64,000 bases of DNA from positions 7,274-71,273 of the forward strand of contig CANPWX010000001.1 in assembly GCA_947585065.1 (NCBI GenBank), written 5' to 3'. Below the pieces are notes generated by a model. It did no database searches. It was not told where the DNA came from and saw only the letters and a list, made by a program, of their open reading frames with translations. The translations under genes were made by a program, and so were the position numbers. The stretch is from an uncultured Bacilli bacterium. GTDB taxonomy: Bacteria; Bacillota_I; Bacilli_A; RF39; UBA660. Shown piece by piece: positions 941 to 63,174 of this stretch. Each line of letters begins with the position of its first letter. Positions within the stretch are counted from its first letter, which is position 1.

Positions 941-1054
941 TAAATTACTTATAAAGGTATCAATGATACCATAAAAATCTTTCTTATTTAATAAACTTAA
1001 ATAAGAAAGGAGGCGGAAAGGTCAAGGTATAAAGATCTCTTGACCGATAACCGC

Positions 1055-2887: not shown

Positions 2888-2898
2888 TAATGCTTTAA

Positions 2899-2932
2899 GG
2901 ACTAAATTACTTAAGTAATTTAGTCTTTTTTT
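2899..2932 (+). terminator. Rho-independent terminator (GGACTAAATTACTTAAGTAATTTAGTCC-like hairpin followed by T8)
   Basis: Inverted repeat followed by TTTTTTTT immediately after the stop at 2887. Confidence 0.6.
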
Positions 2933-2975
2933 TATATTATATTAAGGAAAATAAAAATTAAAGGAGGTAATCCTT

Positions 2976-5015: not shown

Positions 5016-5026
5016 GGTGAATAATA

Positions 5027-5052
5027 AAAGACTTAAAATAAGTCTTTTTTTT
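5027..5052 (+). terminator. Rho-independent terminator (AAGACTTAAAATAAGTCTT + T9)
   Basis: Perfect hairpin plus T-run right after the stop at 5015. Confidence 0.65.
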
Positions 5053-5133
5053 TGGTTTAAAATAATTAAACTATTTAAAAAAACTTTTAATTATAATAGA
5101 AAGAAAAAAGATAGATAAAGGGAGGTTTTTTAC

Positions 5134-5865
5134 ATGACAGTAGAAGACGTAAAAGAATTATTAGAATTAATAACTCCTTATATTTATGTCATCGCCCCTA
5201 TAATTTTTGGTATTTATTTAAAACTTAGAGATAAATTTAAAGAAACTCAAACAAAAATAAAAGATTTAGATGTAGCAAAAGCAAAAGAAGAATATAGCGT
5301 GTGAAAGCATGAAGAATCACAAAGAGTTATAAGAAAAATTAAAGATATGTGTAATCTTTATAAAGATAAAAGCAATGCTGGTTTAGCTCAATATTTGCAA
5401 TTAGAAAATGGAACCATGGCTACTAGTAAAATATGCAATATGTTTGTATCTTGTTTAGCTGAAGATGATAGATATGGTAGAATACCTAAATTAAGTAGCA
5501 GATTACAAAGAGTGCCATATGCAAAAGTAACAAGTTGAATTAATAAAATTATTCAAAATAAAGAAAGCTCAATTAATTATGTATTAACACCAAATGCGGC
5601 TGCCGCTGATTATTCTTTTACTGACATCATTGATGCACCAGAGATAAAATCTTGTATTATTGCTCCAGTTTATGACCAAAACGAAATATTATTAGGTATG
5701 TGCATTTTTTATTATCCTGAAATTAATTTCTGTAACCATGAACAACAAGAGATAGAACTAATTAATCGTTTTAGAACAGCTATTGAGAGCGTCTTATGAG
5801 AATATCATAATGATAGAAAACATAAAAAACAAACCTTAAAGTTGGAGGGCGAGATTAATGAATAG
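5134..5865 (+). CDS. Hypothetical protein (243 codons, 2 in-frame TGA)
   Basis: RBS AAAGGGAGG then ATG at 5134. Frame 1 is open through TGA codons to TAG at 5863-5865. It contains track ORF 5347-5538. Confidence 0.5.
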
Positions 5866-6192
5866 TTTATATGATGCAAGATTTTCAATTTTTATCATTT
5901 TAGACATATTAGGAATTTGTTTATCTGCTTTTATATTTAAAAAATTTATAAAAAAGTTTCCTAACAAGCTAATTCCATTAGTGAATATTAGTATGTCTAT
6001 GATAACAACAATTTGTTATTTAGATTATCATTTCCAAAAGAAAGCACCTATGTTATTTTTAATAGTAATGGGTTTAATTGATGGATTAGCGGCAACGGGA
6101 TTACATCAATTAGTAAAACAAACAAAACAATATATTTTTATAAAATGAAAAATTAAAAATTTTAGAAAAGACAAAAGAAAAATTGTTATGTA
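5858..6192 (+). CDS. Small hydrophobic membrane protein (possible holin-like), 1 TGA
   Basis: The ATG overlaps the upstream stop. There are two to three hydrophobic segments (IFIILDILGICLSAFIF; MITTICYLDY; LFLIVMGLIDGLAATG). The ORF continues past TGA at 6146 to TAA near 6190. Confidence 0.4.
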
Positions 6193-6227
6193 ATTAACAA
6201 TTTAAAAGAGAAAAAGGAGAGATATAT

Positions 6228-9200
6228 ATGGCAGTTAATATCAATTTATTTCCTCCTGTTTTAGACGTCTACATGCCTGCTTTTTTGATTAATAGTAGTG
6301 ATATTCAAAAGAATATATGTAGGGTCTATTTTTCTATTTCTGCTTATAATAATTTATCAGAAATAAAAAATATACAAGTAACAGTAACAAATCAAAATAC
6401 TAATATATCAGTTTTAAATAGAACTAATTATCCGTGTGAAATAATGTTAAGCGAAGTTAAAACTGATTTAACTAGAGATTCTGATGATAAATATTATGTT
6501 GAAATAAAATCAAGTGATATTGAGGGAGGATTTCAAATAAATCAGTATTATAAAGTTCAATTAAGGTTTACTGGCGCGGATGCCGCTAATGTGGATTTGA
6601 CCTTGCCTCAGGCGATTGATAGCTGGCTTACCGCAAATTTGTCTAACTTCTCAGAATGGTCAACAGTATGTTTAGTTAGAGGAATAAGTACTCCTACTTT
6701 GTCAATATTAGGATTTGATTCAACAGCAGACACAACTCTATGGTCTTTAAATAATGTTGATTTAGTTGGACATTTATCTTTTGCGGATTCCGCGGAAACT
6801 GATACATTAAAAAGTTATCAAATTAAACTTTATAATGCTAATAATGAATTATTAACTGATAGCGGTTTATTATACACTAATAATTATACTAATATAAATG
6901 AATTTAGTTATGTTTTTGAATATAACTTAAATGAAGGAGATAGTTATTATTTTACTTTTGAATATGAAACTGCTAATATGTATAAAGAAAGTTATAGATA
7001 TGATTTTATAATAATTCAAGAATCAGCAGAGATGCTAGATGCAGAAATGACTGCTATACTAGATGAAATCAATGGTTGTATTGGAATAAATATTAAAGAT
7101 AAAATGGGTGTAAATACTTTTGTTGGAAATATTACTATTAGAAGAACATCAAGTGAAAGTAATTTTACTATATGAGAAGATATACATACGGCTTCTTTTG
7201 AAGATAATTCAATATTAGATTACACTTGGTGAGATTTCACTATTAAGAGCGGTGTTTATTATAAATATTTAGCTCAAAAAAGAACTAGTGTAGGTAATAG
7301 AGGTATTCCAATTTATCCTAACAATAATGAACCTATTATGATGTTATTTGATACTATGTATTTAACAGGTCAAGGAAATCAATTAAATATTAGATTTGAT
7401 CCAAAAATAAGTTCATTTAAACGAAATGTTAGTGAGTCTAAGACTGATACTATTGGTTCTAAATATCCATTTGTAAAAAGAAATGGTTATATGGATTACA
7501 AGAGTTTTCCTATTAGTGGTTTAATAACTCATCTTATGGATCCTAGTCATTCTATAACATCAAAAGAAAAAGAATTTAGAGATAGTCTAAGTTATTATGA
7601 AGAATTCAATAAAAAGAATAGAATTGACGATTTTAATGATTGAACTTATGAGCGTGAATTTAGAGAAAAGGTATCTGATTTTTTATACGCTAATAAAGTT
7701 AGATTGTTTAGATCTGCAACTGAAGGAAATATATTAGTTAGATTAATGGATATTAATTTTACTCCTAATGAAATATTAGGTAGAAGAATTTATACATTTA
7801 CTGCGACAGCTTATGAAATTGATGAATTTAATATTAAAAATTGTGATAAATATGGAATAAATAGCTTAGGTACATACGACACACAATTACAATTTAATCA
7901 AGATTATATAGGCCAATTTAATGAAATTATACCTGCTGGTATAAATGTATTAGAACTAATTGAAGAAAAATATAAAAAATATACAAAAGAAGGCTATGTA
8001 GTTAATATAGATTATTTAGATTTTTTAAGGATTGAGATGGAAGATAAGCCTTATTTGATTAATGAAAATGCGGACGGGCCTTATGTAGTTAATGACCGCA
8101 TTCGTGCGCGTGAAGAACTGACTTCCGCATATTTAGGCTATTTAGTTTATATTAATGAACAGCCTATTGTAATTAATCCTGAAGGTATATATGAATTAAA
8201 AGGTGAAGATATTAAAATTACTTCATTACGTTTTCCTATTGATACAAAAATAAATATTGATTATCATACTTATATTAGCCAAAAAGAAGATAATACTCAA
8301 CTAGTAAAAACTAATACTTTTTATAAAAGAGTTGGACAATTATGAGGGGGATTTGCGCCTAATGATTCTTTATATCAACAAATTTGAAATAAATATTTTG
8401 AAAAATATTCAACGTATATGCAAACATTATTGTCTTTAGATGAGATTAAAGTAGAGGCTGAACCTGGTACTGTAGTATACGTTAAGGAATCTAAAGATAA
8501 AGATTTTCAACGTCATGTAATTGGTGAAACTCATACTTTAGATTTTTATTCTGAAGATTGCACAATTAATGGATTATATTTTGCAGGCTTGCATTTTGAA
8601 GAAGCTAATGAAAGTGAAAAAGAAAAAGATATACTTCCAAGTAATAAATTTATAGATACTGGGATAATATTAGATAAGTATGTTAGTGATACATCAGATT
8701 TAATTGAAAATGGTGTATATACATTGGCAGATGATTATTTAGAAGTATTAGACCATTTTGAAGGAGCTTACAGTTTTAAATCTAAAAAACAATTTCCACC
8801 AGATACTGCTTCCGCGAATCAAGATAATATAGAACATAGTGATATAAATAAAGCATACACTTTATTATTAGATAGAGTATATGAGTCTATTGATGATGAT
8901 GGCGGTATATTGGTTGATCATGAATTTGTTGAAGATGTCCATGGAGATTATTGAACTGGAGAACTTTATGTAGATGGTAATTTTGATGAAAATCAAATCA
9001 ATCAAATAGATGCCAATAACTCTGAAGATTTTATTAAATCAGGAGATAAAGTATTAAAAAATGGCTATACATTTAAATCAAAGATGCAAGAACCTGAAAA
9101 TGATACTGCTTCAGCCAATTCTAAGCAAATGGAAAAGTCAGAAACTACATATACAATAAGTTTAAATAAAGAATATGACGAATACTATAATTTAGTAGTT

Positions 9201-9377
9201 TATAAAGAAATAGATAAAGAATATGCTTTATTATTACAAAGATTAATAGATGAAGCAAATAGTAGATATTTATGGCATGATAATAAATGGTGATTATTTA
9301 CTAAAGATAATGATGTTCTTTGTTCTGTTGAAGCTCTCATAGATTACTGTTGTGAAATAGTAAAGGGGAGATATTAA
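6228..9377 (+). CDS. Very large virion structural protein (about 1049 codons) formed by TGA read-through of track ORFs 6228-7175, 7338-7643, 7704-8345, 8418-8954 and 9084-9293
   Basis: All five segments are in frame 0 and separated only by TGA codons. RBS GGAGAG then ATG at 6228, TAA at 9375-9377. Late-arm position suggests a baseplate or tail protein. Confidence 0.5.
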
Positions 9378-11434
9378 TGAAAAAGAGATATGAATATTCT
9401 AATGATGCTGATTTTTTAAATGAATTTAACAATGAGAAATTAAAAGAACAATTTGTAAAAATAACCATTTTAGATTGATTAGAAAGACCTATCCAAGAAG
9501 TACAAGGTATTGTGACTGGAGGAACTATTAATTTAGATGGTAATTCTAGTGTTCGAAGAACAGTTAATCTTTCTGCTTTTATAAATGAAGAAGAAATAGC
9601 TAGAGTTACCAATCTAGATAATTTATTTGCTATGAATAAAAAAATGTTTTTAGAAATTGGTTATATAAATACAACCGATAAATATTTACAATATCCAATT
9701 ATATGATTTCCGCAAGGACATTTTATAATGTTTAATCCAAATTTAACTCATTCAGTGGGCGGAAGCTCGCTTCAAGTATCATTAAGAGACAAAATGTGTT
9801 TATTAAATGGAGAGTGCGGAGGTACCATACCCGCATCTACGCAATTTGATGAATATGATACTATTGATGATAAAGGCAATTGGATAACTCAAAAGCCGAC
9901 TTTTGAGCAAATTATAAGAGAACTTGTAAATCATTTTGGAGGAGAACAACTTGGAAAAATAATTATAAGTGATGTTCCTAGAAGAGTAAAAAAAGTAATG
10001 AAATGAATTGGAAATTCTCCAGTTTATTTAATTAATAATGAAGGTTCATACATTATGAGTACAAATTATGCGGATGTCGCAGATAAATCATATCAAGTAT
10101 TTGATTATGGTGAAGACATAGGATATATATATACTGATTTTACTTGTCCTAGTGAATTAATTGGAAATGCTGGAGATAATGTATGTACTATATTAGATAA
10201 AATAAAAAATATGCTAGGAAATTATGAATATTTTTATGATGTTGATGGAAATTTTATTTGACAAGAAATTAAAAATTATCTAAATACAACAAAAGCAACT
10301 GTAGATTTAGAAAAAATGACTAAAGATGATTATTTAATTGATGCAAGTAAAGGTAAAACAGTATACAATTTTAATAATAGTGTTTTAATTACTTCATTTT
10401 CTAATTCTCCTCAATACAATAAAATTAAAAATGATTTTATTGTATGAGGAATTAAAGAAAACGCTAATGGAAATAATGTTCCTATTAGATATCATTTAGC
10501 TATTGATACTAAACCAAAAATTGGAAATATATATGATGTATTTTTTTATGAAGATCCCGATGATGGATTAACAAAAGCAAAAATGCCTATATTATATAGA
10601 AGTTTTGCAGAAATTAATAAAACGCCTGGCGCAGCTGGAATATTTTATAAAGCTACTGATACTAATATAATATATCAATGAAATGGTAATAAAGAAAAAT
10701 ATGAAGAAGTAGATACTGAGACAACTCAATTTGTTAAAGTTCAAACTACGGATTGACGTTCTGAATTGTATTTACAAGGAGTTCAAGCTGAACCTCTAGG
10801 GATAGCTTCAAATTATTATTATACAGAATTGATGAACGAGTGGCCAAAGCTGTATAATTTACAAAAGGATTTTTACATAGATAATGAAGGTACAAAAATA
10901 TATACTGGTGGATTTTATGATGAAGTATTAAAAACTCCTAGTAATATAGATTATTACCTAGATTTTATAGATTCTAATGCTGCGATATCGCAATTCAGCG
11001 TTAATAATATTGGTCGTCGCACTCACGTTGTTAATAGTAATGATATTAATTGTGTATTTGAACCTACTATTCCAGATTTTATAATAATAGAATTAGGTAG
11101 ACCAGATACTGAAGAAAAACGTAGAGAATGCGAAGCTAAAGGGCAAAATTACATTCAAGTGGATACTTCAATATTTAATTTATTAGCTACTGGTGGAAAT
11201 TTAAATTCTGCATATAATGAAGTTAAAATGTTATTGCATGAATATACAAGTTATAATGAGAGTGTTAATATTCAAACAGTTCCTATATATAATTTAGAAC
11301 CAAATATTAGAATTGGCGCTAGGGATATAGAAAGTGATATCTATGGCGATTATATGATTTCTAGTATTTCTATCCCTCTTGATGTTGGTGGAACAATGTC
11401 AATATCAGCAACTCGAGCTTTAGAAAGATTTTAG
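9377..11434 (+). CDS. Structural protein (about 685 codons) joining track ORFs 9512-9706, 9728-10006, 10055-10261 and 10766-11434 via TGA codons
   Basis: The ATG at 9377 overlaps the stop of the previous gene (TAATGA). All segments lie in frame 2. TAG stop at 11432-11434. Confidence 0.5.
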
Positions 11435-11453
11435 AGTAAAAGGAGTGTTAAAG

Positions 11454-12155
11454 ATGAGTTATAAATTCGGACAATTTAGAAAAAGTCAATTGCAATCTTA
11501 TTTAACACCTTTAGAATATACTTTGGATGATATAAAAGTAGAATCAAGTCTTTCTAAAGGAGTTATTTTTGTAGATAAAGGAATTGATTTATCTGGAAAA
11601 AATATATTACAAGCATTGACTGAAAATAATAAACAAAGAAGTTATTATTTAAGATTTAGAATAGAAAAACAAGAAACTAATCAATTAATTAATATTAGAT
11701 TAATTAATACAGATAAAAATAAAGATAATGTTCAAACCATAAAAACTATAAATGTTGAAAGCGGAAAAGATGATTATTCTACATTTGAATTAGTTATAAG
11801 CCCAAATGATAATCATTCTTATAATCAAATATTTTTTGAATTAAATAGAGAATTAATTGATTATAATACTCTTAATAGCGATGGTACTTATGGTAGAACA
11901 GTTAAAATAATAATTGAAAGATTAGATGAAATATATAATGTTATTGATTTTTTAAACCCTTCTATTGAAAATAAAGGAAGATTGAAACAAATTGGTATCC
12001 AAGGTCCTCCTGGTTTATTAATGAGCATTAATGGAGAAGATATTAGGATTGGTAGAAGTGGAATATATGAAATTAATAATAAAATAAATGTTACTTTTAT
12101 AGGCTTCATTATTGAAGCAGATGAAAAATATTTCATTTTAGATTATCAATATTAA
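11454..12155 (+). CDS. Structural protein (234 aa) with C-terminal GIYE motif
   Basis: RBS AAGGAG then ATG at 11454. The ORF is intact without TGA. C-terminus reads DIRIGRSGIYEINNKINVTFIGF..ILDYQY. Confidence 0.55.
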   Translation: MSYKFGQFRKSQLQSYLTPLEYTLDDIKVESSLSKGVIFVDKGIDLSGKNILQALTENNKQRSYYLRFRIEKQETNQLINIRLINTDKNKDNVQTIKTINVESGKDDYSTFELVISPNDNHSYNQIFFELNRELIDYNTLNSDGTYGRTVKIIIERLDEIYNVIDFLNPSIENKGRLKQIGIQGPPGLLMSINGEDIRIGRSGIYEINNKINVTFIGFIIEADEKYFILDYQY

Positions 12156-12168
12156 GGAGGAAAGCGCA

Positions 12169-13434
12169 ATGGAATACAATAGTTTTTATGGAGGAAGAAG
12201 AGGAGCTTCTTTCGTTATTATAAAGTCTTATAAAAGTATTGCTGATATGGTTGCCGCTTTTCAACAAGGTGGAGCTTATAAAGTAGTTAATTATGATGAA
12301 TATGTTTTAATTGATACTGAAAATAAAAATGATAAAGATAATGGTAAAATTTATCGTAGAGGGTATGAATATAACAATTCTATGGGTGGAGCTGATTATA
12401 TTGGACAAATTGTCGGTCCAGCTGGTATGGCTCCGCATACTGAAATGCATACTATTGAAGAAGTAGAACAAATAGCTGAAAGAGATGGTTTTGAATATAG
12501 AAAAGGCAGCGGAAGCTATGATGTTCAAGGAAATAATTTAATACCTGGAAAATATGTAGAACCTGGTTCTGGAGTTATTCATTATAATGATGAAATTAGT
12601 TGAGCTTATTGTTCTGTAAGAGATATCAATTCACATGAATCAACAGCTCATATTGGTTTTAGATTTCCTTATACTGTAATTGATTATACAACTACATCAA
12701 TTAGTACATATAAAGATGGTAATTATACTGATACATCTAGTGCAGAAAGAATTGATGATGGCAGTCATCCTTTTTATGAAAAATGAAATATTAAAATACC
12801 TAAAGGTATTAAAGGAGATACATTAAAGAATTTTAGAGTTATGACTGCTAATACTGCAATTGAGCCTTACTCAGGTAGAGATGATGATATTGCTAACAAT
12901 AGAAAAGTATTAGTTTATGATTATTATATTTATGATGATAAAGAAGATGGAATTTTTAAAACTTATTATGTAGGAGATTATAATAAAATTTCTGATGTAA
13001 AAGTTGAAAAGAATGGAAAAGTTACTATTAGTTATGAACATGATGATGATGATAACTATTTATTAAACATTCCTATTTCAGTTAATATATTAACAGGAGA
13101 AACAGAAGGTAGTGGAAATCAAAAAATTGAAATAACATATGCCGATGGGACTAAACAGGAAATAGGTAATCCACTTAATTATATAATTAAAACTGCTATT
13201 GATAATAGATATCATTTATTAGTTTATTATTCAGACCCTGAAAAAAGAAATGCTGGAACTAAAGTTTCTTGAGATGGAAATGATGATTGGACTGACTTAG
13301 GATATATTGGTGACGGAACTGGGAATGGAGCAGTCGCTGGGAAAGAAGATGACGAAGGCGTTAAAGAAGTTGCTAACCATATGCCTGTATATAGTGTATG
13401 GATGATAGTAGAAGAAGATGGTAACAATGAATAA
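12169..13434 (+). CDS. Structural protein (about 421 codons) joining track ORFs 12169-12603 and 12841-13272 through TGA codons
   Basis: RBS GGAGG then ATG at 12169. Frame 1 is open through four TGA codons to TAA at 13432-13434. Confidence 0.5.
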
Positions 13435-13717
13435 TAATGGATGTACTGGTCAATTACTTGGACCATTTAAAGCTAACGAAGAGTTATATAATAAAATAAT
13501 TGCGGATGCTGCTTATCCAGTATTATATATCAATCATTTGGGAATTCAAACTGATATAAGAAATTTTGTTTATATAAATGGAAATAAATATGAAATTGGA
13601 AAAACAGGTATTTATGAAGTTGGTAATACTGAAATTACTTCTATTTATTTTGAAAGTGATACTGATGATAATAGTATTATTGACTATTCAATAACTTGTA
13701 AAGAAGAAGAAAAATAA
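13418..13717 (+). CDS. Small structural protein (99 aa) with C-terminal GIYE motif
   Basis: Overlaps the end of the previous gene. Sequence includes NGNKYEIGKTGIYEVGNTEITSIYFESDTDDNSIIDYSITC. Confidence 0.45.
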   Translation: MVTMNNNGCTGQLLGPFKANEELYNKIIADAAYPVLYINHLGIQTDIRNFVYINGNKYEIGKTGIYEVGNTEITSIYFESDTDDNSIIDYSITCKEEEK

Positions 13718-13721
13718 AAAA

Positions 13722-13773
13722 GATGCATAAGAGCATCTCTTTTTTTTGCCCTCATTGAGGGCTATTTTTTTAT
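13722..13773 (+). terminator. Tandem rho-independent terminators (AGATGC..GCATCT+T8 and GCCCTCattGAGGGC+T7)
   Basis: Two GC-rich hairpins, each followed by a T-run, after the stop at 13717. Confidence 0.65.
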
Positions 13774-13950
13774 GTAATTTTTTAAATATTATTTTTATGA
13801 TAAAAGTACAATGTCTTTGTAAATAATTTTTACTACCTGATAAATTATTAAATTTTTATAAAAACTTTGGCAAGTTTAATAAAAGAGTTTTGATAAAAAC
13901 TTATATATTACTGAAAGGAAAAGGAATAATAGAAAGGAGTATTTAAAATT

Positions 13951-14355
13951 ATGAACTATTATCCAAATAATAATTTTTATCAAAACTATTCTTATGGTAA
14001 CCAAATCGCACAACAAATACCTACTCTTCAAGGTAAAGTTGTTGATAATGCGGAAATGGTTAGAGTTACAGAAGTGCCATTTGGAGGCTTTGGAGTTTTC
14101 CCAAAAGGTGATTTAAGTGAAGTTTATATTAAATCATGGAATAGTAATGGAACTACTCAAATAAATACATATAGACCTGTTCCTGCTGAGGAGATTAAAG
14201 AAATAGACCCTCATAAAGAATTAATTGAAAAAATTGATGCTTTAAGTCAAAAAATAGATATGTTAAGCGGCAATGGCGGTCAACCCAGCGCTAAGCAAGG
14301 TACTACGTCCATAACACCGGCTGCCGCAAAGGATGTGAGAGTAAATGCCTATTAG
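13951..14355 (+). CDS. Hypothetical protein (Asn/Tyr/Gln-rich N-terminus)
   Basis: Strong RBS AAAGGAG then ATG. Intact 134-aa ORF. Confidence 0.5.
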   Translation: MNYYPNNNFYQNYSYGNQIAQQIPTLQGKVVDNAEMVRVTEVPFGGFGVFPKGDLSEVYIKSWNSNGTTQINTYRPVPAEEIKEIDPHKELIEKIDALSQKIDMLSGNGGQPSAKQGTTSITPAAAKDVRVNAY

Positions 14356-14605
14356 AAATCCTCAACAAATGTTAAACTTAATTAGTGGTCTCCGCAATCA
14401 AGACCCATCTGCTTTTGTACAGAATATGGTTATGGAAGCTGCTAGTCAAGGAAATCCTATTATGCAAAATCTAGCTTCTTTAATTCAATCAGGCGAGACT
14501 AATCAGATTGAATCTATTGTTAGAAATATAGCAAAAGAAAGAGGTATAGATTATGACAAAGAATTTAAAGCCTTTCGTCAAATGTTAGGTTTTAAAGATA
14601 GATAA
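14345..14605 (+). CDS. Hypothetical protein (86 aa)
   Basis: The ATG overlaps the upstream gene end. Intact ORF. Confidence 0.4.
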   Translation: MPIRNPQQMLNLISGLRNQDPSAFVQNMVMEAASQGNPIMQNLASLIQSGETNQIESIVRNIAKERGIDYDKEFKAFRQMLGFKDR

Positions 14606-14632
14606 TATCATTTTAAAGAAAGGAGAGTTTGT

Positions 14633-15457
14633 ATGTTTAGCTCAAATAATGGTTACAGCTTAGCTGATATTGCTGCAGCAACTGGAAATAATGGAAACTC
14701 TAACAATGGTTGGGGTGGAGACGGAGCTTGGTGAATTATTATCTTATTCTTATTCGTATTCTGCGGATGGGGAAATAATGGTAATGGATTCGGCGGAGGT
14801 AATGGCGGAGCACAATCTGCTTTAACTCGTGGAGAATTATGCCAAGACATGAACTTTGCTGATTTAGAAACTGCAGTAAGAGGAGTTAATACCGGATTAT
14901 GTGATGGCTTCTATGCCATGAATACTGGTATGTTAAATGGTTTCTCAGGATTACAACAATCTTTACAAAGCGGATTTGCTGGAGTAGATAACGCTATTTG
15001 TACTCTTGGATACCAAAATCAAATGGGAGTAAATTCAATTACTCAAGCAATTAATGCAGCTGATGTTAATGCAATGCAAAATACTAATGCATTAGCCACA
15101 CAAATTGCACAATGCTGCTGCGATAATAAAGCTCAATTATGTGATTTAAAATATGATTTAGCTACTGATAACTGTGCTTTACAAACATCTATTGCAAATG
15201 CAACAAGAGATATGATTGATAATCAAAATGCTAATACTAGAAGTATTTTAGATTTCTTAGTAAATGATAAAATTTCTACTCTTGAAAATGAAAATCAAAC
15301 ATTAAGATTATCTGCTAGTCAACAAGCACAAAACAATTATTTAGTTAGTACATTAAGACCAGCACCAGTACCTGCTTTTGCAGTACCAGCACCTTATCAA
15401 TTCACTTCTTGCGGTGGATGCGGATGCGGAAATGGTTTTAATGGAATTAATTACTAA
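14633..15457 (+). CDS. Membrane-anchored Gly/Asn-rich protein with Cys/Gly-rich C-terminus (1 TGA)
   Basis: RBS AAAGGAGAG then ATG at 14633. Frame 2 is continuous with track ORF 14849-15457 through a TGA near 14731. TM segment IIILFLFVFCGW. Ends CGGCGCGNGFNGINY. Confidence 0.45.
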
Positions 15458-15488
15458 AATTAATTAAACGAAATGGAGGAAATATAAG

Positions 15489-15917
15489 ATGTATGAATTA
15501 ACTGCAAATGCTTTGCAAACAGTTTTAACAAATCAAAATATTTTATTTACTGAAGTACCTATGTACTCATGTAATAATTCCATAGTTTATAGAGAAGGAA
15601 GCGGACTAGTGAGTCTACGCGGCTTGACATCTTGCCAATGCCGCGCTAGATTCAGAGTTTCATTTGGCGGAAATATTGCTATTCCTGAAGGTGGAACTGT
15701 TGGACCTATCTCTATTGCTATTGCAGTAAATGGTGAATCAATCGCAACTACTACTGCAACAGTTACACCTGCAGCCGCAGAAGAATTTAATAATGTAAGT
15801 ACTGATGTATTTATTGATGTACCTGCAGGATGCTGCTCTCAAATTAGTGTAAAAAATATTAGCACTGAAACTATTGATGTTCAAAATGCTAATCTAATTG
15901 TAGAAAGGGTGGCGTAA
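15489..15917 (+). CDS. BclA C-terminal domain-like (C1q/TNF-like jelly-roll) protein
   Basis: Tail LIVERVA and overall pattern (GLVSLRG..VSFGGNIAIPEGGTVGPISIAIAVNGESI..) resemble the C-terminal domain of Bacillus exosporium protein BclA, which ends in EKVA. Similarity was recognised by eye, not searched. Confidence 0.4.
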   Translation: MYELTANALQTVLTNQNILFTEVPMYSCNNSIVYREGSGLVSLRGLTSCQCRARFRVSFGGNIAIPEGGTVGPISIAIAVNGESIATTTATVTPAAAEEFNNVSTDVFIDVPAGCCSQISVKNISTETIDVQNANLIVERVA

Positions 15918-15918
15918 T

Positions 15919-16527
15919 ATGGAACAATTAAAAGCAATGAAAGAACAATTAACAGCTTGTGTTCAAGCGCAAATTGGTGATTTAAAAAGCGCTAATGCTG
16001 AAGAACTTGGCGAAGCTGTTGATATGATTAAAGATTTGTCTGAAGCTATCTACTATTGCACAATAACAAAAGCAATGGAAGATAGTGATAAAGAAAAAGA
16101 AATGATGAGATATGTAAAACCTATTTACTATTATAATGAAATGGGCGGAAATAAGCCTAGATATTATAATGGCAGCTCATCATACGCTATGTCTGGACGT
16201 GGTGGAAATCAAAGTGGTAGTCGTAGAAATTATAGCGACGGCCGCATGTATTACGATGGAGAAATGATGGAACATTATCCTAGATACATGGAAGATTCTT
16301 ATCCAATGGAAATAAGAGATTACCGCGAAGGTAGAAGTCCAGTTAGTAGAAGAATGTATATGGAGTCAAAAGAATTACATCATGATAAAGCAAAACAAAT
16401 GAAAGAATTAGAACAATATATGAAAGAATTAAGTGAAGATATAACTGAAATGATAGATGATGCGACTCCAGATGAAAAAGAAATTCTATCTCAAAAATTA
16501 ACTACTTTAGCAGAAAAAATTAGATAA
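15919..16527 (+). CDS. Hypothetical Tyr/Met/Arg-rich low-complexity protein
   Basis: Intact 202-aa ORF. The ATG overlaps the upstream stop. Confidence 0.4.
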   Translation: MEQLKAMKEQLTACVQAQIGDLKSANAEELGEAVDMIKDLSEAIYYCTITKAMEDSDKEKEMMRYVKPIYYYNEMGGNKPRYYNGSSSYAMSGRGGNQSGSRRNYSDGRMYYDGEMMEHYPRYMEDSYPMEIRDYREGRSPVSRRMYMESKELHHDKAKQMKELEQYMKELSEDITEMIDDATPDEKEILSQKLTTLAEKIR

Positions 16528-21901: not shown

Positions 21902-22444
21902 TTAAACTTTTTGATACAGTTTAACCTCTTTTGTTTTTAAACTTTTTTGGACATCTATAACTCTTTGATTGCGGGAACCGCGTAGCCAGAGCGTAATGTC
22001 TCGTTCTGATTGAATATATGGCCCATCTATTAAAACATCAATTTTAGATAGTATTGTATGTAAGATAAACTCATCTCTGATTAGATCTTCCCAAACATAG
22101 CCTGTTCACAAGAATATACGCGTGTTTGGGCAATCTTGTTTAATCACATCAAGGATTGCCGCCGTATTCACAACGTTATCATTATCTTTCCATAATGGCT
22201 CGCCACCAAGAATACTTAAATTTCTTTGAATACCATTAGCTGTTAAATCTTTTTTAATAGTATCAATCAATTTACTCGTCCACATTTCATCTCCATAGCT
22301 ACTATCTCAGGCTTCTGGGTTATGACACCCAGGACAATGGAGAGGGCAACCAGATAGGAAGACACTTACACAAGTGCCTTCGCCATTAACTATGTCGTTT
22401 GGATTGATACCAGCAACATGAACCATGCCTGTCATTATTTCCAT
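21902..22444 (-). CDS. nrdG: Anaerobic ribonucleotide reductase activating protein NrdG (radical SAM), 2 in-frame TGA = Trp
   Basis: Reverse translation gives ..GEGTCVSVFLSGCPLHCPGCHNPEA[TGA]DS.. and ..NTRIFL[TGA]TGYVWEDL... These align with E. coli NrdG CPGCYNKSTW and DIWVWTGY, so both TGA sit at conserved Trp positions. Confidence 0.8.
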
Positions 22445-24771
22445 CCTTGTAATTTCTTACTATGTTTATATCTATCTTCAGTTTCCGCCTGTTTTCCTTT
22501 ATTAAACGCTGTCTTATAGTCGCCAGTAAGATAGCCTGTTACGCGACGAAGTTGTTGAATATGTTCACTATCACACATAGGACAATGGTCATTGAATTCA
22601 TCGCAATATCCACATTCAAGACAAGTGTCATTTGGAACATTCAAAGCGAAGTAAGGTATGTCTTTATCTATAGCATAATTAACTATTTGTTCAAGTGCTT
22701 CTAAATTATTTTTAACTCCACCATCTAATTCTACATAAGTAATACAACCAGCAGAACTATATCCAGTTAATTGACTTTCAATATCAATTTTGTCATATGG
22801 ACTCATTTCTTCTCATACTGGAACATGGATACTATTAGTGAAGTATTCTCTATCGCTAATATTTGGTATTTCTCCATATCTCTTTTTGAATTTCTTCATT
22901 GCGGTATAGCAAAGATTTTCAGCTGGGGTATAGTAAACACCAAAATTTAATTTATATTCTTCTTTAAATTCAGCACAACGTTTTTTAAATAATGCTTCAA
23001 TTTTTTTAGCAAGTTCCATACCTTCTTCAGTTGTATGGTCTTTACCAATTAAGATTTGAAGTGTTTCCGCAAGACCAATTTGACCCAAAGCCAAGGTACC
23101 ATGCTTCAATGCACTTCGAATACCTTCTTCAGGAACATAGCCTGCCATTAAACCATTCTCATACATAAACTTTGCAGACTCGGGTGATTGAGAACAGATA
23201 TAATCAAATCTTTCAATTAGCATATCTTTTGCTTCATAAATTTTATCATTTAATAATCTTAAGAATATGTCAATAACTTTGTTAGGATCAAAATTTTGAG
23301 TTCTAATTTCTTCTTTTGCTTCCATAGCAAGAGTAGGCATTATTATAGTAACAGGACATATATTACCTCTACCATCCTTAAGTTGTCCAAATCCGTTTAT
23401 ATCGAAACCATTCGCCGTACGGCACCCCATCGTAGAGAAATAAGTTCTAGGGTCATTTAGATCATAACCTACATTACCGCTCCAGTCTACATTTGCATAA
23501 TTTGGATATAATCTTTGAGCTGTTGATTTAAGTGCTAATTGGAATAAATCGTAGTTAGGATCTCCAGGTTTTCGGTTAACACCTTTCATACATTGAAATA
23601 TACCACATGGGAATATAGGTGTTTTTCTTACTTTGCCTACGCCTTTAATAGAACCTTCAAGCAATGCTTTTGTAACCATTCTGCCTTCAGGAAGCGTGCA
23701 TGTTCCATAATTAATGCTCGTGAATGGAAGTTGATTTCCAGATCTAGATTGAAGTGTATTTAGATTATGATACATACCTTCTACTGCTTGTTTTAATTCA
23801 CGTTCAGTTCTTTGATAAGCATCATCAAAAGCCATAGTATATTTATCTTTTTTATTAAATTCATAATCTAAAATACTAATGTCTTTTACTTTATCTTCAT
23901 AAATAGCTTTACCAAGCTCTGCACGGAACTCTTCTATTTCATCTATTTTTCTTTTGTTTTCATCTGAATAATCATTGTAATTTTTAACTTCTGGTTGGCT
24001 ACCAAAAACAAAAGCAGATTCAATATCTAGTGCTTCTTGTAAATGTTTATAAAAAGATTTACGAACATATGGAACCATAGTTCAATCTAGGTGCGTTGCG
24101 GAAACACCACCAAACTGCTGCAATGACTGAAGTTGAAATATTACTGCAACTAATTGAAATGCAGTATTGATTGATTGAGCTGGACGAACATCTGTTTGTC
24201 TAGTGTTAAAACCTTTTGCTAATAAATCATCAAAAGGTACAGATAAACAGTTATGCATACCAACTGCATAGCTATCAAGGTCGTGAATATAAATTTCATT
24301 ATTTAAATGATTATTTCTAGCCATTGGTGATATTATGTAATTTAATGCATAGTCTTTCATTAACTCGCTACGGGCTTCACCCATACGACCTCCAAATGAA
24401 TGTTCATCAACATTAGCATTTTGATTTTGAACATCAGAAGCATCAAGTTTTTCAGCTATATTTTTAATTAGCTCTGAGTTCTTTTGTCTTATTTTATTTC
24501 TTTCTTCTCTATAAAGGATATATGCTTTTGCGACATCTTTTCTTTTAGTAGACATTAAACCTTTTTCTACTAAATCTTGAATTTCTTCAATTCCAGGTGT
24601 CTCTTCTACTTCTTCATAATATCCTTCAATAAAATCTGCAATATTTTCAGCTTTTATTTCAGCATATTCAGTTATTTCTCCGTCTACGCTTTTAAAAGCT
24701 GCAAGTATTGCTTTTTGAATTTTTGATGGATCAAATTCTACTATTCTTCCATCGCGTTTCTTTACGTTCAT
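22435..24771 (-). CDS. nrdD: Anaerobic ribonucleoside-triphosphate reductase NrdD (about 778 codons; track ORFs 24082-24771, 22813-24078 and 22435-22806 joined by two in-frame TGA)
   Basis: Class III RNR features: N-terminal ATP-cone-like MNVKKRDGRIVEFD, C-terminal zinc ribbon CLECGYC..CPMCDS, and glycyl radical motif RRVTGYL. The junctions are exactly TGA, in frame. Confidence 0.8.
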
Positions 24772-32537: not shown

Positions 32538-32810
32538 TTAAAATAGGTAGTCACCAGACCCAGTTATTTCATAATCAGTTATGAAGATTTGTGGTGTAAT
32601 ATTTCCCATCCATTCATTTTGATTACATTTACCTACTACATTAATTGAAATATATGTTTCAGTAAAATTTTGCAATGCATAGCATTCTTCTTCACTAGCA
32701 TCAAATTTCATTAAACTAATTTTATTAGGAAGAGTTATTTTCAATGTATTATTTGTTTTTCTATAAACAGTTACCATATCTTTAGTTATTTTTAAATTTT
32801 CAACTGCCAC
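32538..32810 (-). CDS. Hypothetical protein (90 aa)
   Basis: Intact ORF. Confidence 0.35.
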   Translation of the reverse strand: MAVENLKITKDMVTVYRKTNNTLKITLPNKISLMKFDASEEECYALQNFTETYISINVVGKCNQNEWMGNITPQIFITDYEITGSGDYLF

Positions 32811-32834
32811 AAGAGCTTCATTAAAATCTTTACC

Positions 32835-34367
32835 TCATAGATTATTTAAATTAGCAATAGTAAGAATTTCATCAGATTGAACATCAGCGCCTTGATATAT
32901 ATAATCTACATAATATATTGGCTCTGCGGAAATGTTCGCTAAAGCGTCATCAGTTTTAGATAAGAATTCTTCTAACCTATCTGCCGCAATGCAAAGTCCA
33001 AAAGCATTTTCATGTCCTTGGCACCATTCAGCACCCGCCGCCTCACATATAGATTTAAAATTAGTGATACCAGTTTGTTCATATCCACGTGCAGAACCTT
33101 GATATGTTATTTTTTCATCTGCTACCGCATTATATCTACCAGTTTCAAAATTAATCTCAGTAATCTTCATTGTTTTATAATTTGGTTCAATTACTTTTGT
33201 TAATATACAACAAGGTCTTTGATATTTATTTGCTATCTTATTAGCAATTAAGCCTGCTATATTTTTATCTATTTCTTTTATATCTAAAGCAAATAATATT
33301 ACTTTATGATTTAATAAATTTTCTTCTTCTATTGATTCTTCTAATATTGACATAGTTAAATCTTGTGCTTTTGTTTGTCTATTTTTTACATTAGTAGACA
33401 TGCGGACAGCCTGATCAACTAAACGTTCCATTTCTCCAAGTTTATGACCACGTTTATTCGAAGGTATTAATTGAAATGCTTCATAATTAAGCATTGACTT
33501 AAATAATAATTCTTTTTCTTCTATTGTACCACTGCGTTGAACTGCATTAATCATTGGTACGATATAAAATGCGGCGTCTATTGAGCGAATATGTTCGCCT
33601 AATTTAAACTTATTTTTTTGCCACATTTCAAATATATATGGATTATGAATTCTTGCAGGCTCAAAACCTTTCAATATTAAGTGTTTTGTTTCTATTGAGG
33701 TAAGACTCATCATATCTCCAGTAAGACCCAATGCCACTAAATCAAGATATTGGTCTGCATAATTCTTACCAAATAAACTATCTAAATATCTACAAAATTG
33801 TCATACTACACCAACTCCTGACAATTCTTTATTTGGATAATCACATAATTGATTATTTATTGTAATAGCATATTCACTTAAATGGTCTGCTAAATGATGG
33901 TCTAATATAATTGTTAATATTCCTTTATCTTTTAATTCTTTATGTTGTTCATAATCATTTGAAGATGAGTCTGGAGCTATTACTAATGAAAAATTTTTTG
34001 AATTAATATAATCCATAGTATCTTGTAAACCGTGTTGTTTGCCTTCATGAACTCACCAATGTAAATGATTTTCTACTCATGTTGGGAATACATCGTGAAG
34101 ATAATTGATTAATAATGCGGAAGCTGTAAAGCCATCGCAATCGCAGTCTACTATTACTACTGCATCTTTATCTTCACTAATACAAGATATAGCGGCAACC
34201 GCTGCAGCCTTTAAACAATCTTGTCCAAACGCACTTGGTTCATTAATATCCGCATCAGTAGTATTCAAATAATGTTGAATTTCTGCATATGGAATATGTC
34301 TATTAGTTAAAATAGTTTCTAAAGCGTTGTAATTTTTATTTATTGGGTTAATTAACTTATATTTCAT
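32835..34367 (-). CDS. DHH-family phosphoesterase (RecJ-like ssDNA exonuclease-like), 3 track ORFs joined by TGA
   Basis: Motif I DCDCDGFTAS and motif III ILDHH. The junctions at 34077 and 34053 are TGA, in frame. A C-terminal DHHA1-like region is present. Confidence 0.6.
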
Positions 34368-34368
34368 A

Positions 34369-34587
34369 TTATCTAAATCCTTTCATTTCTTCTGGAAACA
34401 CAACTGCATCTTGCATATTTACTATTCATTTACGACAAGCAAAATAGTCATCAAAATGTATTTCACACTCACCAGATTCTGTAACAGTATTGTCTGGGAA
34501 TTCATAACGAATATATCCAGTAAACCATACATCTCCAAATCCTGAAACTCCATATCCATTCACTATAAATTTACTTTTCATCTTCAT
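34369..34587 (-). CDS. Small hypothetical protein (about 72 aa, 1 TGA)
   Basis: RBS AAAGGAAG then ATG. Reverse translation gives MKMKSKFIVNGYGVSGFGDVWFTGYIRYEFPDN... Confidence 0.35.
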
Positions 34588-59646: not shown

Positions 59647-59721
59647 GCCCAGTTAGCCAAGTAGTTAAGGCATCGGTCTGCAACACCGTGATCCGCGGCG
59701 CACATCCGCGACTGGGCTCCA
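59647..59721 (+). tRNA. tRNA-Cys (anticodon GCA) with non-canonical T-loop
   Basis: Cloverleaf by eye. Acceptor GCCCAGT/ACTGGGC. Anticodon loop CTGCAAC. T-stem CGCGG/CCGCG, but the T-loop reads CGCACAT rather than TTCRANT. Ends TCCA. Confidence 0.5.
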
Positions 59722-59811: not shown

Positions 59812-60558
59812 ATGATAGGAATTTATAAAATACAAAATAAAATAAATGGTAAAATTTATATTGGTCAAAGTATTCATATTGAAAGAAGATTTCAAGAGCA
59901 TTGTTTTCCTAGTTCTAATTCTTTAATTAGTAGAGCAATTCATAAATATGGAAAAGAAAATTTTGATTTTACAGTAATAGAAGAATGTAAAATCGAAGAA
60001 TTAGATAAAAAAGAACAATTTTGAATAAAAAAATATAACTCTTTAATACCTTATGGATATAACATTAATGAAGATACCTCAACAACACATACTAATTATT
60101 ATTATAAAGAAAAAGGAGAAATTTTATCTATTATAAATGATTTACAATATTCAAATTTATCAATGAGGCAAATAGCAGATAAACATAATATTAATATTAG
60201 CAATGTGTCTAGAATAAATAGAGGAAGTACACATAAGCAAGAAGGCTTAATATACCCTTTAAGAAAAATTAATGAATACAATTTAAAAAATTATTGTATA
60301 GATTGTGGTAAAGAAATTTCTAAAGGACATTTAAGATGTAATAGTTGTGAGGGTGTTAATAAAAGAATAAAGTTAGAAGATATGCTTATTACTAGAGAAG
60401 ATTTAAAAGATTTAATTAGACATATTCCATTTACAAATATAGCAAAACGATATGGAGTTACTGATAACGCAATTAGAAAATGGTGTGATAAATATAATTT
60501 ACCTAGAACTAAAAAAGAAATTAAATCATATTCAGATAAAGAATGAAAGAATATTTAA
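59812..60558 (+). CDS. GIY-YIG homing endonuclease (2 in-frame TGA)
   Basis: N-terminal GIYKIQNKINGKIYIGQS..RRFQEH. C-terminal helix-turn-helix DNA-binding tail. Track ORFs 59812-60024 and 60163-60546 are in frame and joined by TGA. Confidence 0.6.
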
Positions 60559-61416: not shown

Positions 61417-61445
61417 TTGATATTTTTAAAAATTTATTATATAAT
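61417..61445 (+). promoter_or_regulatory. Sigma-A-type promoter TTGATA-N17-TATAAT
   Basis: Consensus promoter. RBS and ATG at 61480 follow. Confidence 0.55.
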
Positions 61446-61948: not shown

Positions 61949-62018
61949 GGATATTAGTTTATTGGTTAAACATTTACCTTGCAAGTAAAAGAAGATGGTT
62001 CGAATCCATCATTACCCT
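61949..62018 (+). ncRNA. Degenerate tRNA-like element (anticodon-loop CTTGCAA = UGC; acceptor with 2 mismatches; one-nt 8-9 linker)
   Basis: D arm GTTT/AAAC, anticodon stem TTTAC/GTAAA, T arm GATGG-TTCGAAT-CCATC. The acceptor GGATATT/ATTACCC is poor and there is no G3-U70. An 8-bp inverted repeat TAGACACA/TGTGTCTA flanks the element. Confidence 0.25.
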
Positions 62019-62041
62019 TTATATGTGTCTAGCTTATATAT

Positions 62042-62119
<78 letters not shown>

Positions 62120-62122
62120 TAT

Positions 62123-62198
62123 TGCCTCGTGGTGAAATGGTAACACAAACGGCTTTGAACCGTTCATTTTCCTGGTTCGAACCCAGGCGGGGCAGCCA
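62123..62198 (+). tRNA. tRNA-Gln (TTG)
   Basis: U1-A72 acceptor TGCCTCG/CGGGGCA. Anticodon stem-loop AACGG-CTTTGAA-CCGTT. T arm CCTGG-TTCGAAC-CCAGG. Ends GCCA. Confidence 0.75.
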
Positions 62199-62304
62199 AT
62201 GAAAAAATAATATTTAATATACACATGGGAAACGCAGTTGTGACTCGAGTTATAGAACGAAGGACTGCCAGCTTACTGTAGTTGAGAGGTTGGGTAAGCA
62301 TTTT

Positions 62305-62382
62305 GGGGGTATAGCTCTAACGGCTAGAGCGTCTCGCTTGCAACGAGAAGGTTGTGGGTTCGAATCTCCACTACCTCCACCA
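62305..62382 (+). tRNA. tRNA-Ala (TGC)
   Basis: G3-U70 identity pair. Anticodon loop CTTGCAA. T arm GTGGG-TTCGAAT-CTCCAC. Ends CCA. Confidence 0.8.
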
Positions 62383-62387
62383 TTTAT

Positions 62388-62468
62388 GTCATAATAGTTC
62401 AGTGGAAGAACATTACATACATTATTGTATTGTAAAGGTCGCAAGTTCGAATCTTGCTTATGGCTACC
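62388..62468 (+). ncRNA. Aberrant tRNA-like element: normal acceptor, D and T arms, but the anticodon arm is replaced by a 9-bp bulged hairpin with a 4-nt loop (13-nt region TACATTATTGTAT)
   Basis: Acceptor GTCATAA/TTATGGC, D arm GTTC-AGTGGAA-GAAC, T arm GCAAG-TTCGAAT-CTTGC. There is no 7-nt anticodon loop. Confidence 0.35.
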
Positions 62469-62599
62469 TATATCACAAACCTTCCTATTTAATGTGATTT
62501 GCGGGCTTCGATGCTCGCTGCGGAAATGCTAGATTTAACGCACGTTAATCTCGATTAATAAGCGTATGACCTTGATTTCCGCAGGGGGTTTTGAAATTT

Positions 62600-63018
62600 G
62601 GGCTTGTATTTGGTTTCGACTAGATTGCAAGAGTATTGGAATACAAGTAGTAGGCAGTTACTTAAAAGGCAACAAAAAATAAATAACAACATTTTTTCAA
62701 AAATTGTTAGTAAAGTTAAATCTTTATTCGCTGTTAATAGCGTAGTCTTCGCGTAAGGCTAAACAATCTTCTATGCGAAGTATCAGAGTAAACAGAGAAA
62801 AGTATAGTCGTATTAACTAGACAAAGTTTACTATTCTATTGACTGTCCCTAGCCGTGGAATATAGAATAATTTACTTATATGCGTAGGGCTGACTCTAAG
62901 ATTTGTATGTGGTAGGAGCAACAGATAGAACGATATGCACAAAACTTGTAAGGTAAGAATGAGATTTCCAGTATATCCCAATACTAGGACATGGGTTCGA
63001 GTCCCATCAGGTCCACCA
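62600..63018 (+). ncRNA. ssrA: tmRNA (SsrA)
   Basis: The 5' end GGGCTTGTATTTGGTTTCGAC matches the consensus GGGGCUGAUUCUGGAUUCGAC. The 3' end is a tRNA-like domain ATGGG-TTCGAGT-CCCAT-CAGGTCC-A-CCA with G3-U70. An internal open frame ..AAC AAC AUU UUU UCA AAA AUU GUU AGU AAA GUU AAA UCU UUA UUC GCU GUU AAU AGC GUA GUC UUC GCG UAA (tag ending ..AVNSVVFA) lies about 85-157 nt from the 5' end. Confidence 0.7.
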
Positions 63019-63019
63019 T

Positions 63020-63096
63020 GCGGGTTTAGCTCAGTTGGTTAGAGCGCAGTCCTGATAAGACTGAGGTCCTAGGTCCAAGTCCTAGAACCCGCACCA
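63020..63096 (+). tRNA. tRNA-Ile (GAT)
   Basis: Acceptor GCGGGTT/AACCCGC. Anticodon loop CTGATAA. T arm CTAGG-TCCAAGT-CCTAG. Ends CCA. Confidence 0.8.
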
Positions 63097-63099
63097 TAT

Positions 63100-63174
63100 A
63101 CGCTTGTCGTCCAATGGTTAGGGCTTTCGGCTTATATCCGAACTATCGGGGTTCAAATCCCTGCGAGCGTACCA
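63100..63174 (+). tRNA. tRNA-Ile2 (TAT anticodon, decoding AUA)
   Basis: Acceptor ACGCTTG/CGAGCGT. Anticodon stem TTCGG/CCGAA with loop CTTATAT (anticodon UAU). T arm CGGGG-TTCAAAT-CCCTG. Ends ACCA. Confidence 0.6.

Follow-up and report, generated by a model that had tools for sequence, protein, structure and literature searches.

A one-piece transfer-messenger RNA (tmRNA, ssrA) gene of 419 nt with an encoded CCA end lies at 62600-63018 on the + strand of the window, by which we mean the whole 64,000-nucleotide stretch analysed here (positions 7,274 to 71,273 of contig CANPWX010000001.1). Judged from its sequence and that of its relatives, it is a genuine and probably functional tmRNA, and the explanation that best covers all of the data, which we hold with considerable confidence, is that it is a phage-borne ssrA working by host-assisted trans-translation. 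The gene and its relatives are a new sub-family of the already known phage-encoded ssrA, a gene lineage of large (~75-145 kb), AT-rich animal-gut phages whose tmRNAs carry a 24-residue basic amphipathic tag.

A one-piece tmRNA and its relatives

When the window was searched with Infernal against all Rfam families, RF00023 matched 62600-63018 (+) over its full length (model positions 1-374) with 56.4 bits, exceeding the gathering score of 47, and the E-value of 1.8e-19 for the whole window is far beyond chance. Posterior probability was high in both halves of the tRNA-like domain, in helix 2 and in the resume region, while the pseudoknot-rich middle was poor. The first-pass annotation, made from the sequence alone, had proposed a one-piece tmRNA and had named this model as a check on it; the full-length match, together with covariation among homologues, confirms that identity.

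The gene starts with GGGCTTGTATTTGGTTTCGAC at 62600-62620 and ends with GGACATGGGTTCGAGTCCCATCAGGTCCACCA. The 5' half of the tRNA-like domain (62600-62620) is composed of the acceptor 5' strand GGGCUUG (62600-62606) and the D-loop-like UGGUUUCGAC, and the 3' half (62987-63018), which aligned with high posterior probability, is composed of GGAC, the T arm AUGGG-UUCGAGU-CCCAU (62991-63007), the acceptor 3' strand CAGGUCC (63008-63014) and ACCA (63015-63018). All seven acceptor pairs form between GGGCUUG and CAGGUCC, including G3:U70, and this 7-bp stem is accompanied by a T arm with a GUUCGAnUC loop, a CCA end and no anticodon arm, as a tmRNA tRNA-like domain requires. The 5' motif, T-loop, CCA and G3-U70 on which the tmRNA had originally been recognized are all present.

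Homologues were sought with a loose pattern of the 5' end in IMG/VR, then with two conserved blocks, and finally with a profile search. The loose pattern returned 120 loci, mostly unrelated, with L012 and L069 as the only relatives, and the profile search returned 23 homologues in IMG/VR, mostly on viral contigs of 75-136 kb. Two further homologues were found on phage-like contigs binned into sheep-gut metagenome-assembled genomes (MAGs; labelled 'Bacilli' and 'Clostridia'), and a neighbouring protein led independently to two more copies. The family has at least 25 homologous tmRNA genes, all within tRNA arrays, on viral contigs of 75-136 kb, and the identity of the window copy to the other members does not exceed 73%. 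An exact 32-mer from the 3' end of the tmRNA had no match in IMG/VR, and none of 50,697 deposited phage records gave a blastn match to the gene. A scan of 185,579 bacterial species representatives with a family 18-mer returned 110 loci, all of them chance matches except for the two phage-like contigs, so that within these representatives no chromosomal tmRNA shares the 18-mer and neither a bacterial counterpart nor a tmRNA of the host came to light.

The pattern of variation within this family is that of a functional structured RNA. Seven variants of the acceptor stem occur, each paired at all seven positions and each with G3:U70, which is invariant. In an alignment of 20 sequences, compensatory double changes were observed in 24 of 48 predicted pairs, falling in helix 2, one stem of the first pseudoknot (PK1; alignment columns 52-55/62-65) and the T arm, whose stem pairs show compensatory changes in 5-8 of the 20 sequences.

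The tag reading frame

Upstream of the proposed resume codon is an A-rich stretch at 62674-62684 (+), CAAAAAAUAAAU, which Infernal aligned to the consensus CAAAAAAUAAuU (AAAAAAUAAuU over these positions) and within which UAAA is invariant in the family. In E. coli, A86, a conserved base within UAGUC, marks the tag frame, which is set four bases further downstream (PMC2481249). The window reads U62680-A62681-AAU and then AAC at 62685, and the U-A at -5/-4 fits this experimentally defined rule (PMC2481249). The frame that follows, at 62685-62756 (+), has AAC as its resume codon, 23 codons encoding NNIFSKIVSKVKSLFAVNSVVFA, and a UAA stop at 62754-62756 (AAC AAC AUU UUU UCA AAA AUU GUU AGU AAA GUU AAA UCU UUA UUC GCU GUU AAU AGC GUA GUC UUC GCG UAA), with a second in-frame UAA two codons past the first, at 62760-62762. 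Including the alanine borne by the tmRNA itself, the full tag is A-NNIFSKIVSKVKSLFAVNSVVFA, a peptide of 24 residues with the C-terminal part KSLFAVNSVVFA; the tag ending of VVFA followed by UAA noted in the first-pass annotation can be read directly in the sequence. In the Infernal alignment, the AAC of the window is placed opposite the second codon (AAC) of the consensus frame, and the consensus resume codon GCa falls in a gap.

Of 20 distinct family sequences, 19 have this 23-codon frame after UAAA(U/C), providing the plausible resume codon and tag frame that a tmRNA should have. At the end of the tag, Val20 is encoded by GTA, GTG or GTT, position 22 is Phe, encoded by TTC or TTT, except for one Leu and two Tyr, and Ala23 is encoded by all four GCN codons. 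Since these amino acids are kept through synonymous codons, selection acts on the translated peptide, implying that the frame is read. Family tags end in V-(A/V/S)-(F/L/Y)-A, with N-S-V-V-F-A in the window and N-x-V-A-F-A in most relatives. The tags are basic, with a net charge of +3, and their amphipathic-helix signal falls in the top 0.7-3% of shuffles. Family tags stop at TAA (n=11) or TAG (n=8) and never at TGA, with another TAA following in frame in members of the TAA type.

The frame is also structured. Hairpin 1, AGUAAAG-UUAAAU-CUUUAUU (62709-62728, +), contains the block AAAGUUAAAUCUUUAUUC, which is invariant in the family; the mid-frame codons AAA GUU AAA UCU UUA UUC are unvarying even at synonymous sites and form a 7-bp hairpin. 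Hairpin 2, CGCU-GUUAAU-AGCG (62729-62742, +), has a stem that covaries (CACU/AGUG, CGCA/UGCG and CUCU/AGAG), and its pairing explains the coupled residue changes A..S, T..S, A..C and S..R among the tags. Hairpin 3, AGUCUU-CGCGU-AAGGCU (62744-62760, +), surrounds the stop codon as the equivalent of helix 5; both partners change in L152 (AGUAUU/AAUACU), and the TAG-ending relatives form a hairpin with the stop in its loop. An alternative to hairpin 3 pairs 62747-62752 with 62776-62781.

Several observations weigh against a functional tmRNA at this locus. The Infernal score is just 9 bits over the threshold, with low posterior probability in the central part of the gene. The second stem of PK1, visible on sequence inspection in several relatives, is not evident in the subgroup of the window, and the region of pseudoknots 2-4 aligns poorly. 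The AAC (Asn) resume codon is unique in the family, in which the other members have GGA, GAC or GCA, and a second UA at 62684-62685 could set the +1 frame in the window. The invariant tag 18-mer served as a search pattern, and its invariance is for this reason partly a matter of ascertainment; it persists in 14 of 15 loci from an unrelated DNA pattern and in the protein-derived loci. No smpB turned up when the 64-kb window and the family loci (3-15 kb per relative) were queried with the SmpB proteins of E. coli and B. subtilis, which is a weak negative. Finally, ARAGORN, also named at the outset as a check, called eight tRNAs in the window and left the tmRNA at 62600-63018 uncalled. However, ARAGORN does call tmRNA homologues in 15 relatives, and we therefore ascribe its failure on the window gene to the heuristics of the tool; detection by ARAGORN is a property of that tool and is no defining feature of the tmRNA family.

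Even among the homologues that it calls, ARAGORN assigns wrong tags to L012, L158, L263, L127, L151, L130, L136, L150, L142 and L128, for example ESKRDFYMSIRSHQKKYSRLTMQRWTLY from a downstream frame, while in others the tag is begun at an internal GCU, seven codons too late (ANKVKSLF..). Because several genes of this family are missed or mis-tagged, phage surveys relying on ARAGORN would undercount and mis-describe the family. A separate case was encountered on an unrelated viral contig of megaphage size (527 kb), where a tmRNA scoring 127 bits (L018, 400-754, -) is also missed by ARAGORN; its tag ends ..LQMAA by eye, and the gene ends in CCACTA, not CCA.

Phage context, genetic code and the tRNA array

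The tail genes, the replication module and the relatives on large contigs indicate that the window is part of a large phage. A block on the + strand (176-13434) encodes tail-type proteins, and a block on the - strand (17444-55423) encodes PolIII alpha, GyrA/B, NAD ligase (LigA), DnaB, primase, NrdD and RNA ligase. PolIII alpha is ~40% identical to those of SPbeta-like Bacillus phages and of 135-140 kb Enterococcus phages, suggesting a replication module distantly like that of SPbeta. For GyrA, more than 100 relatives with 76-79% identity lie on contigs of 110-140 kb, and one identical copy is present on a 73 kb NCBI contig. A viral contig of 144 kb is colinear with the window. With a tRNA array in the window as well and relatives on IMG/VR contigs of 120-145 kb, the original description of the tmRNA as phage-encoded is well founded. 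The phage is probably one of Bacillota; the hints to its host are the two related contigs in sheep-gut MAG bins, which are inconsistent with one another ('Bacilli' versus 'Clostridia').

The closest relative with a readable locus, L100/L268, has a tail protein 78% identical to that of the window and is colinear with it, at ~70% nucleotide identity, up to window position 62504. In L100 (IMGVR_UViG_3300031867_000007, 280-1, -), a different tmRNA allele is found, with the tag ANTELVAA-UAA and a 5' partial match to RF00023 (E 5e-9); this allele is known from its first 280 nt, where the stored sequence ends.

The first-pass annotation had further suggested that the phage recodes a stop codon, and comparison of orthologues bears this out. 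The tail and late block (176-16527, +) has 41 in-frame TGA versus 16 TGG, the replication block (17444-55423, -) has 21 TGA versus 103 TGG with the TGA concentrated in few genes (five in the RecJ-like gene at 32538-34409 and two in NrdD at 22435-24771), and no gene in the window is terminated by TGA. In tail-protein orthologues, the TGA codons of the window, L268 and L269 line up with TGG in L270-272, demonstrating that UGA is read as Trp in the window phage. At positions with CAA or GAA (Gln/Glu) in the window, L270-272 in turn have in-frame TAG, so that these sister lineages use a different stop reassignment. The replication genes strongly avoid TGA, which speaks for a host with the standard code and against a code-4 mycoplasma. 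An alignment of NrdD with PDB sequences placed its TGA sites opposite F/E and Y/R and was uninformative on the identity of TGA. Multi-TAG 'open reading frames' in the family-bearing relatives (3-15 kb loci) proved to be spurious upstream extensions.

In five relatives, a tRNA-Trp(UCA) gene is found within ~8 kb of the tmRNA (L133 8971-9066, +; L137 1126-1222, -; L130 533-629, -; L151 1371-1467, -; L150 11911-12007, +). ARAGORN reports these 96-97-nt genes as 'tRNA-SeC(tca)', although they are actually tRNA-Trp derivatives with A1-U72, G73 and the anticodon UCA, and their arms match those of the neighbouring tRNA-Trp(CCA). The variable region holds a 23-nt insertion that folds into a 5-bp stem closed by the loop CUCCAAA. 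This insertion copies the CCA anticodon arm of wild-type tRNA-Trp, with covariation in its stem and an invariant loop. This extra arm may be a decoy anticodon arm that lets tryptophanyl-tRNA synthetase (TrpRS) charge an opal-reading tRNA. It goes unmentioned in a paper on phage TrpRS:tRNA-Trp(UCA) pairs, and a search of the window for a tRNA-Trp(UCA) with the extra arm found none.

The tmRNA is embedded between tRNA genes, as had been reported, with tRNAs upstream from 61949 and two tRNA-Ile genes downstream. The upstream part (61949-62382, +; ARAGORN and Rfam) consists of tRNA-Ala(UGC), Met, Gln and Ala(UGC), so that tRNA-Ala(UGC) occurs twice in the same array, at 61949-62018 (just 70 nt) and at 62305-62382. 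It is followed by an atypical tRNA-like gene with an extended anticodon stem at 62388-62465 (+), called 'Cys(aca)' by ARAGORN and scoring 53.6 bits against the Rfam tRNA model. The acceptor, D and T arms of this gene are normal, and its 23-nt anticodon arm has a minimum free energy (MFE) fold of 9 bp with a one-base bulge and a 4-nt loop; it is largely deleted in L100 and could be a pseudogene or an unusual tRNA. Downstream, a single T at 63019 separates the CCA end of the tmRNA from tRNA-Ile(GAU) at 63020-63096 (+), in agreement with the 1-nt spacer described before, and tRNA-Ile(UAU) at 63100-63174 (+) is the last gene of the array (both ARAGORN and Rfam). The next tRNA, of varying identity, lies 1-5 nt after the tmRNA in 15 of the 19 copies called by ARAGORN, and is 37-610 nt away or absent in the other four.

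Directly 5' of the tmRNA, a long irregular hairpin in the MFE fold (62507-62595, +) is a possible leader or processing element. The fold of 62466-62599 has an MFE of -40.3 kcal/mol (z -3.55), none of 200 shuffles was as stable, and the hairpin ends 4 nt before the tmRNA. A homologous hairpin module with a covarying stem is located upstream of the tmRNA in L139, L130, L136 and L156, and also in L100 with its different tmRNA allele; 62507-62595 had no Rfam match. A promoter-like TTGATA-17-TATAAT is present at 61417-61445, and such sites are not enriched over shuffles. Farther upstream, an isolated tRNA-Cys(GCA) at 59647-59721 lies just ahead of a GIY-YIG homing endonuclease gene (59812-60558, +) with two in-frame TGA codons, ~1.4 kb upstream of the main array.

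Proposed function and comparison with known systems

Based on the data presented above, we propose that the tmRNA is probably co-transcribed with the surrounding tRNA genes, and that RNase P would cut both at its 5' end and at the 5' end of tRNA-Ile 1 nt downstream, the latter cut defining the 3' end. The mature RNA would then be charged with alanine by host alanyl-tRNA synthetase via G3:U70, bind SmpB and enter stalled ribosomes; given that no smpB was found in the DNA available, SmpB is assumed to come from the host. Translation would resume at AAC 62685, four bases past the conserved A of UAAAU, so that A-NNIFSKIVSKVKSLFAVNSVVFA is appended to the stalled protein, and the UAA would terminate translation and release the ribosome, with the tag passing aborted products to a host protease. 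The likely benefit would be to keep ribosomes available while phage-induced mRNA decay yields non-stop complexes, and in this phage the reading of UGA as Trp may cause host UGA stops to be overrun and add to the non-stop load.

A link between the tmRNA and recoding, raised already in the first-pass annotation, is plausible without being specific. In its stronger form, the tmRNA would be present chiefly on account of UGA reassignment, with ribosomes overrunning host and early UGA stops as far as the mRNA ends, RF2 perhaps being countered, and the UAA-ended tag clearing these ribosomes. The established reading of TGA as Trp, the absence of TGA as a stop both in the window and at the end of any family tag, the second in-frame TAA of the TAA-type members, and the proximity of tRNA-Trp(UCA) to the tmRNA in five relatives are all in keeping with this idea, as is work on a recoded E. 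coli, in which unassigned stop codons are partly resolved through tmRNA rescue (PMC6207430). Yet L100/L268 is equally TGA-rich and has its different, short-tagged tmRNA at the same locus, indicating that no particular tmRNA type is tied to the code. Moreover, tmRNAs occur in phages without reported recoding, including mycobacteriophages and Bacillus phage G (PMC4131195) and huge phages (PMC7162821). On balance, we regard a device specific to recoding as doubtful.

A more speculative proposal, to which we give somewhat less credence, concerns the fate of the tagged proteins. The tag might be a degron or targeting peptide of the phage lineage unlike the host ssrA tag, a cationic amphipathic 24-residue helix ending in V-A-F-A that gives aborted proteins a different fate; related recoded phages might swap tmRNA alleles to match host proteolysis, and the invariant hairpin might bind a phage or host factor. 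If so, aborted proteins would go to a Lon-type, FtsH-type or membrane-associated route, or to none, and the swapped alleles would be the long ..VAFA and the short ..LVAA types.

It is also conceivable, though improbable in our estimation, that the tmRNA is a backup against host defence or phage-inflicted damage, replacing cleaved or depleted host RNA as the tRNA genes around it would, with its divergence conferring resistance. The tmRNA sits in a tRNA array in every relative, a published proposal holds that phage tRNAs evade tRNA-targeting defences (PMC10264068), and tmRNA alleles differ among close relatives as they would in an arms race. On the other hand, there is no evidence for any defence aimed at tmRNA, and the conserved tag peptide is left unexplained by this idea.

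The tRNA-like-domain-only ssrA of mycobacteriophage DS6A has been proposed to act as an inhibitor (PMC4131195), and with this precedent and no phage smpB found in the DNA read, the RNA of the window could be imagined to titrate host SmpB or to block host trans-translation without tagging. This is very unlikely, given that the gene is full length, its resume context is conserved, and synonymous changes keep the C-terminal Val, Phe and Ala, none of which a pure decoy needs. That the gene is not of the phage at all, but a bacterial chromosomal ssrA or an attachment-site remnant caught at a prophage border, is scarcely credible. In its favour, the 3' ends of ssrA genes often serve as integration sites, and the contigs of two family members were assigned to bacterial MAGs. 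Against it, the gene is complete in its frame and in both halves of its tRNA-like domain, phage genes flank it on both sides in a locus colinear with the 144 kb viral contig, the two contigs from MAGs either have the size of a phage or share the tRNA array, and the family 18-mer is in no chromosomal tmRNA of the species representatives scanned.

A functional phage-borne ssrA of this kind adds a widespread, well-defined family to the short list of phage tmRNAs, one of them in a stop-reassigned phage. Its conserved tag is a concrete peptide with which one can test whether rescue products are rerouted by phages, and the allele difference between close relatives provides a handle on host matching.

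Compared with the one-piece tmRNAs of bacteria such as E. coli and B. subtilis, the window gene has the same G3:U70, T arm, CCA and long helix 2, the same A-rich run with UA at -5/-4, and a short frame that ends in hydrophobic residues plus Ala with the stop in or next to a hairpin. It differs in being phage-borne, in its 419-nt length, in its AAC resume codon, and in a frame with two extra hairpins, one of them sequence-invariant. In place of the bacterial ..ALAA tags, it has a 24-residue, basic, amphipathic tag ending in VVFA (VAFA in most relatives).

Mycoplasma ssrA tags end in ..NFAFA, and the NKVKSLF core and the net charge of +3 of the window tag are not known from Mollicutes tags. In M. 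florum, which belongs to a lineage lacking ClpXP, the long tag ends in NYAFA and serves as a Lon substrate (PMC9382460). As to resemblance, the likening to FA-ending Mollicutes tags in the first-pass annotation is fair, since both are long tags in which a C-terminal (A/V)-F-A is preceded by Asn at a distance of a few residues. The likeness extends over 3-4 residues only, does not support homology, common descent, Lon targeting or any shared protease route, and stays a resemblance.

The L100 allele shares with the window gene its position after tRNA-Ala and the leader hairpin, as well as the 5' motif UGGUUUCGAC of the tRNA-like domain, whereas its tag is short and conventional and its body, over the first 280 nt, is not alignable with the window gene.

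Full ssrA genes have been described in mycobacteriophages Bxz1, Cali, Catera, Wildcat and others and in Bacillus phage G (PMC4131195), and tmRNAs are known in huge phages, some of which encode SmpB (PMC7162821), in contrast to the window phage, for which none was seen in the DNA read. Like these, the window gene is a full ssrA on a large genome with many tRNA genes and translation-related functions. Unlike them, it has a distinct conserved tag and no nucleotide similarity detected among the 50,697 phage records, and it belongs to a UGA-to-Trp recoded phage with a different host range, that of AT-rich gut phages, probably of Bacillota. The points that distinguish the gene are therefore the long ..V(A/V)FA tag, the structured frame with its invariant hairpin, the UGA-to-Trp phage that carries it and the replacement of alleles, all of which leave the general understanding of tmRNA action unchanged.

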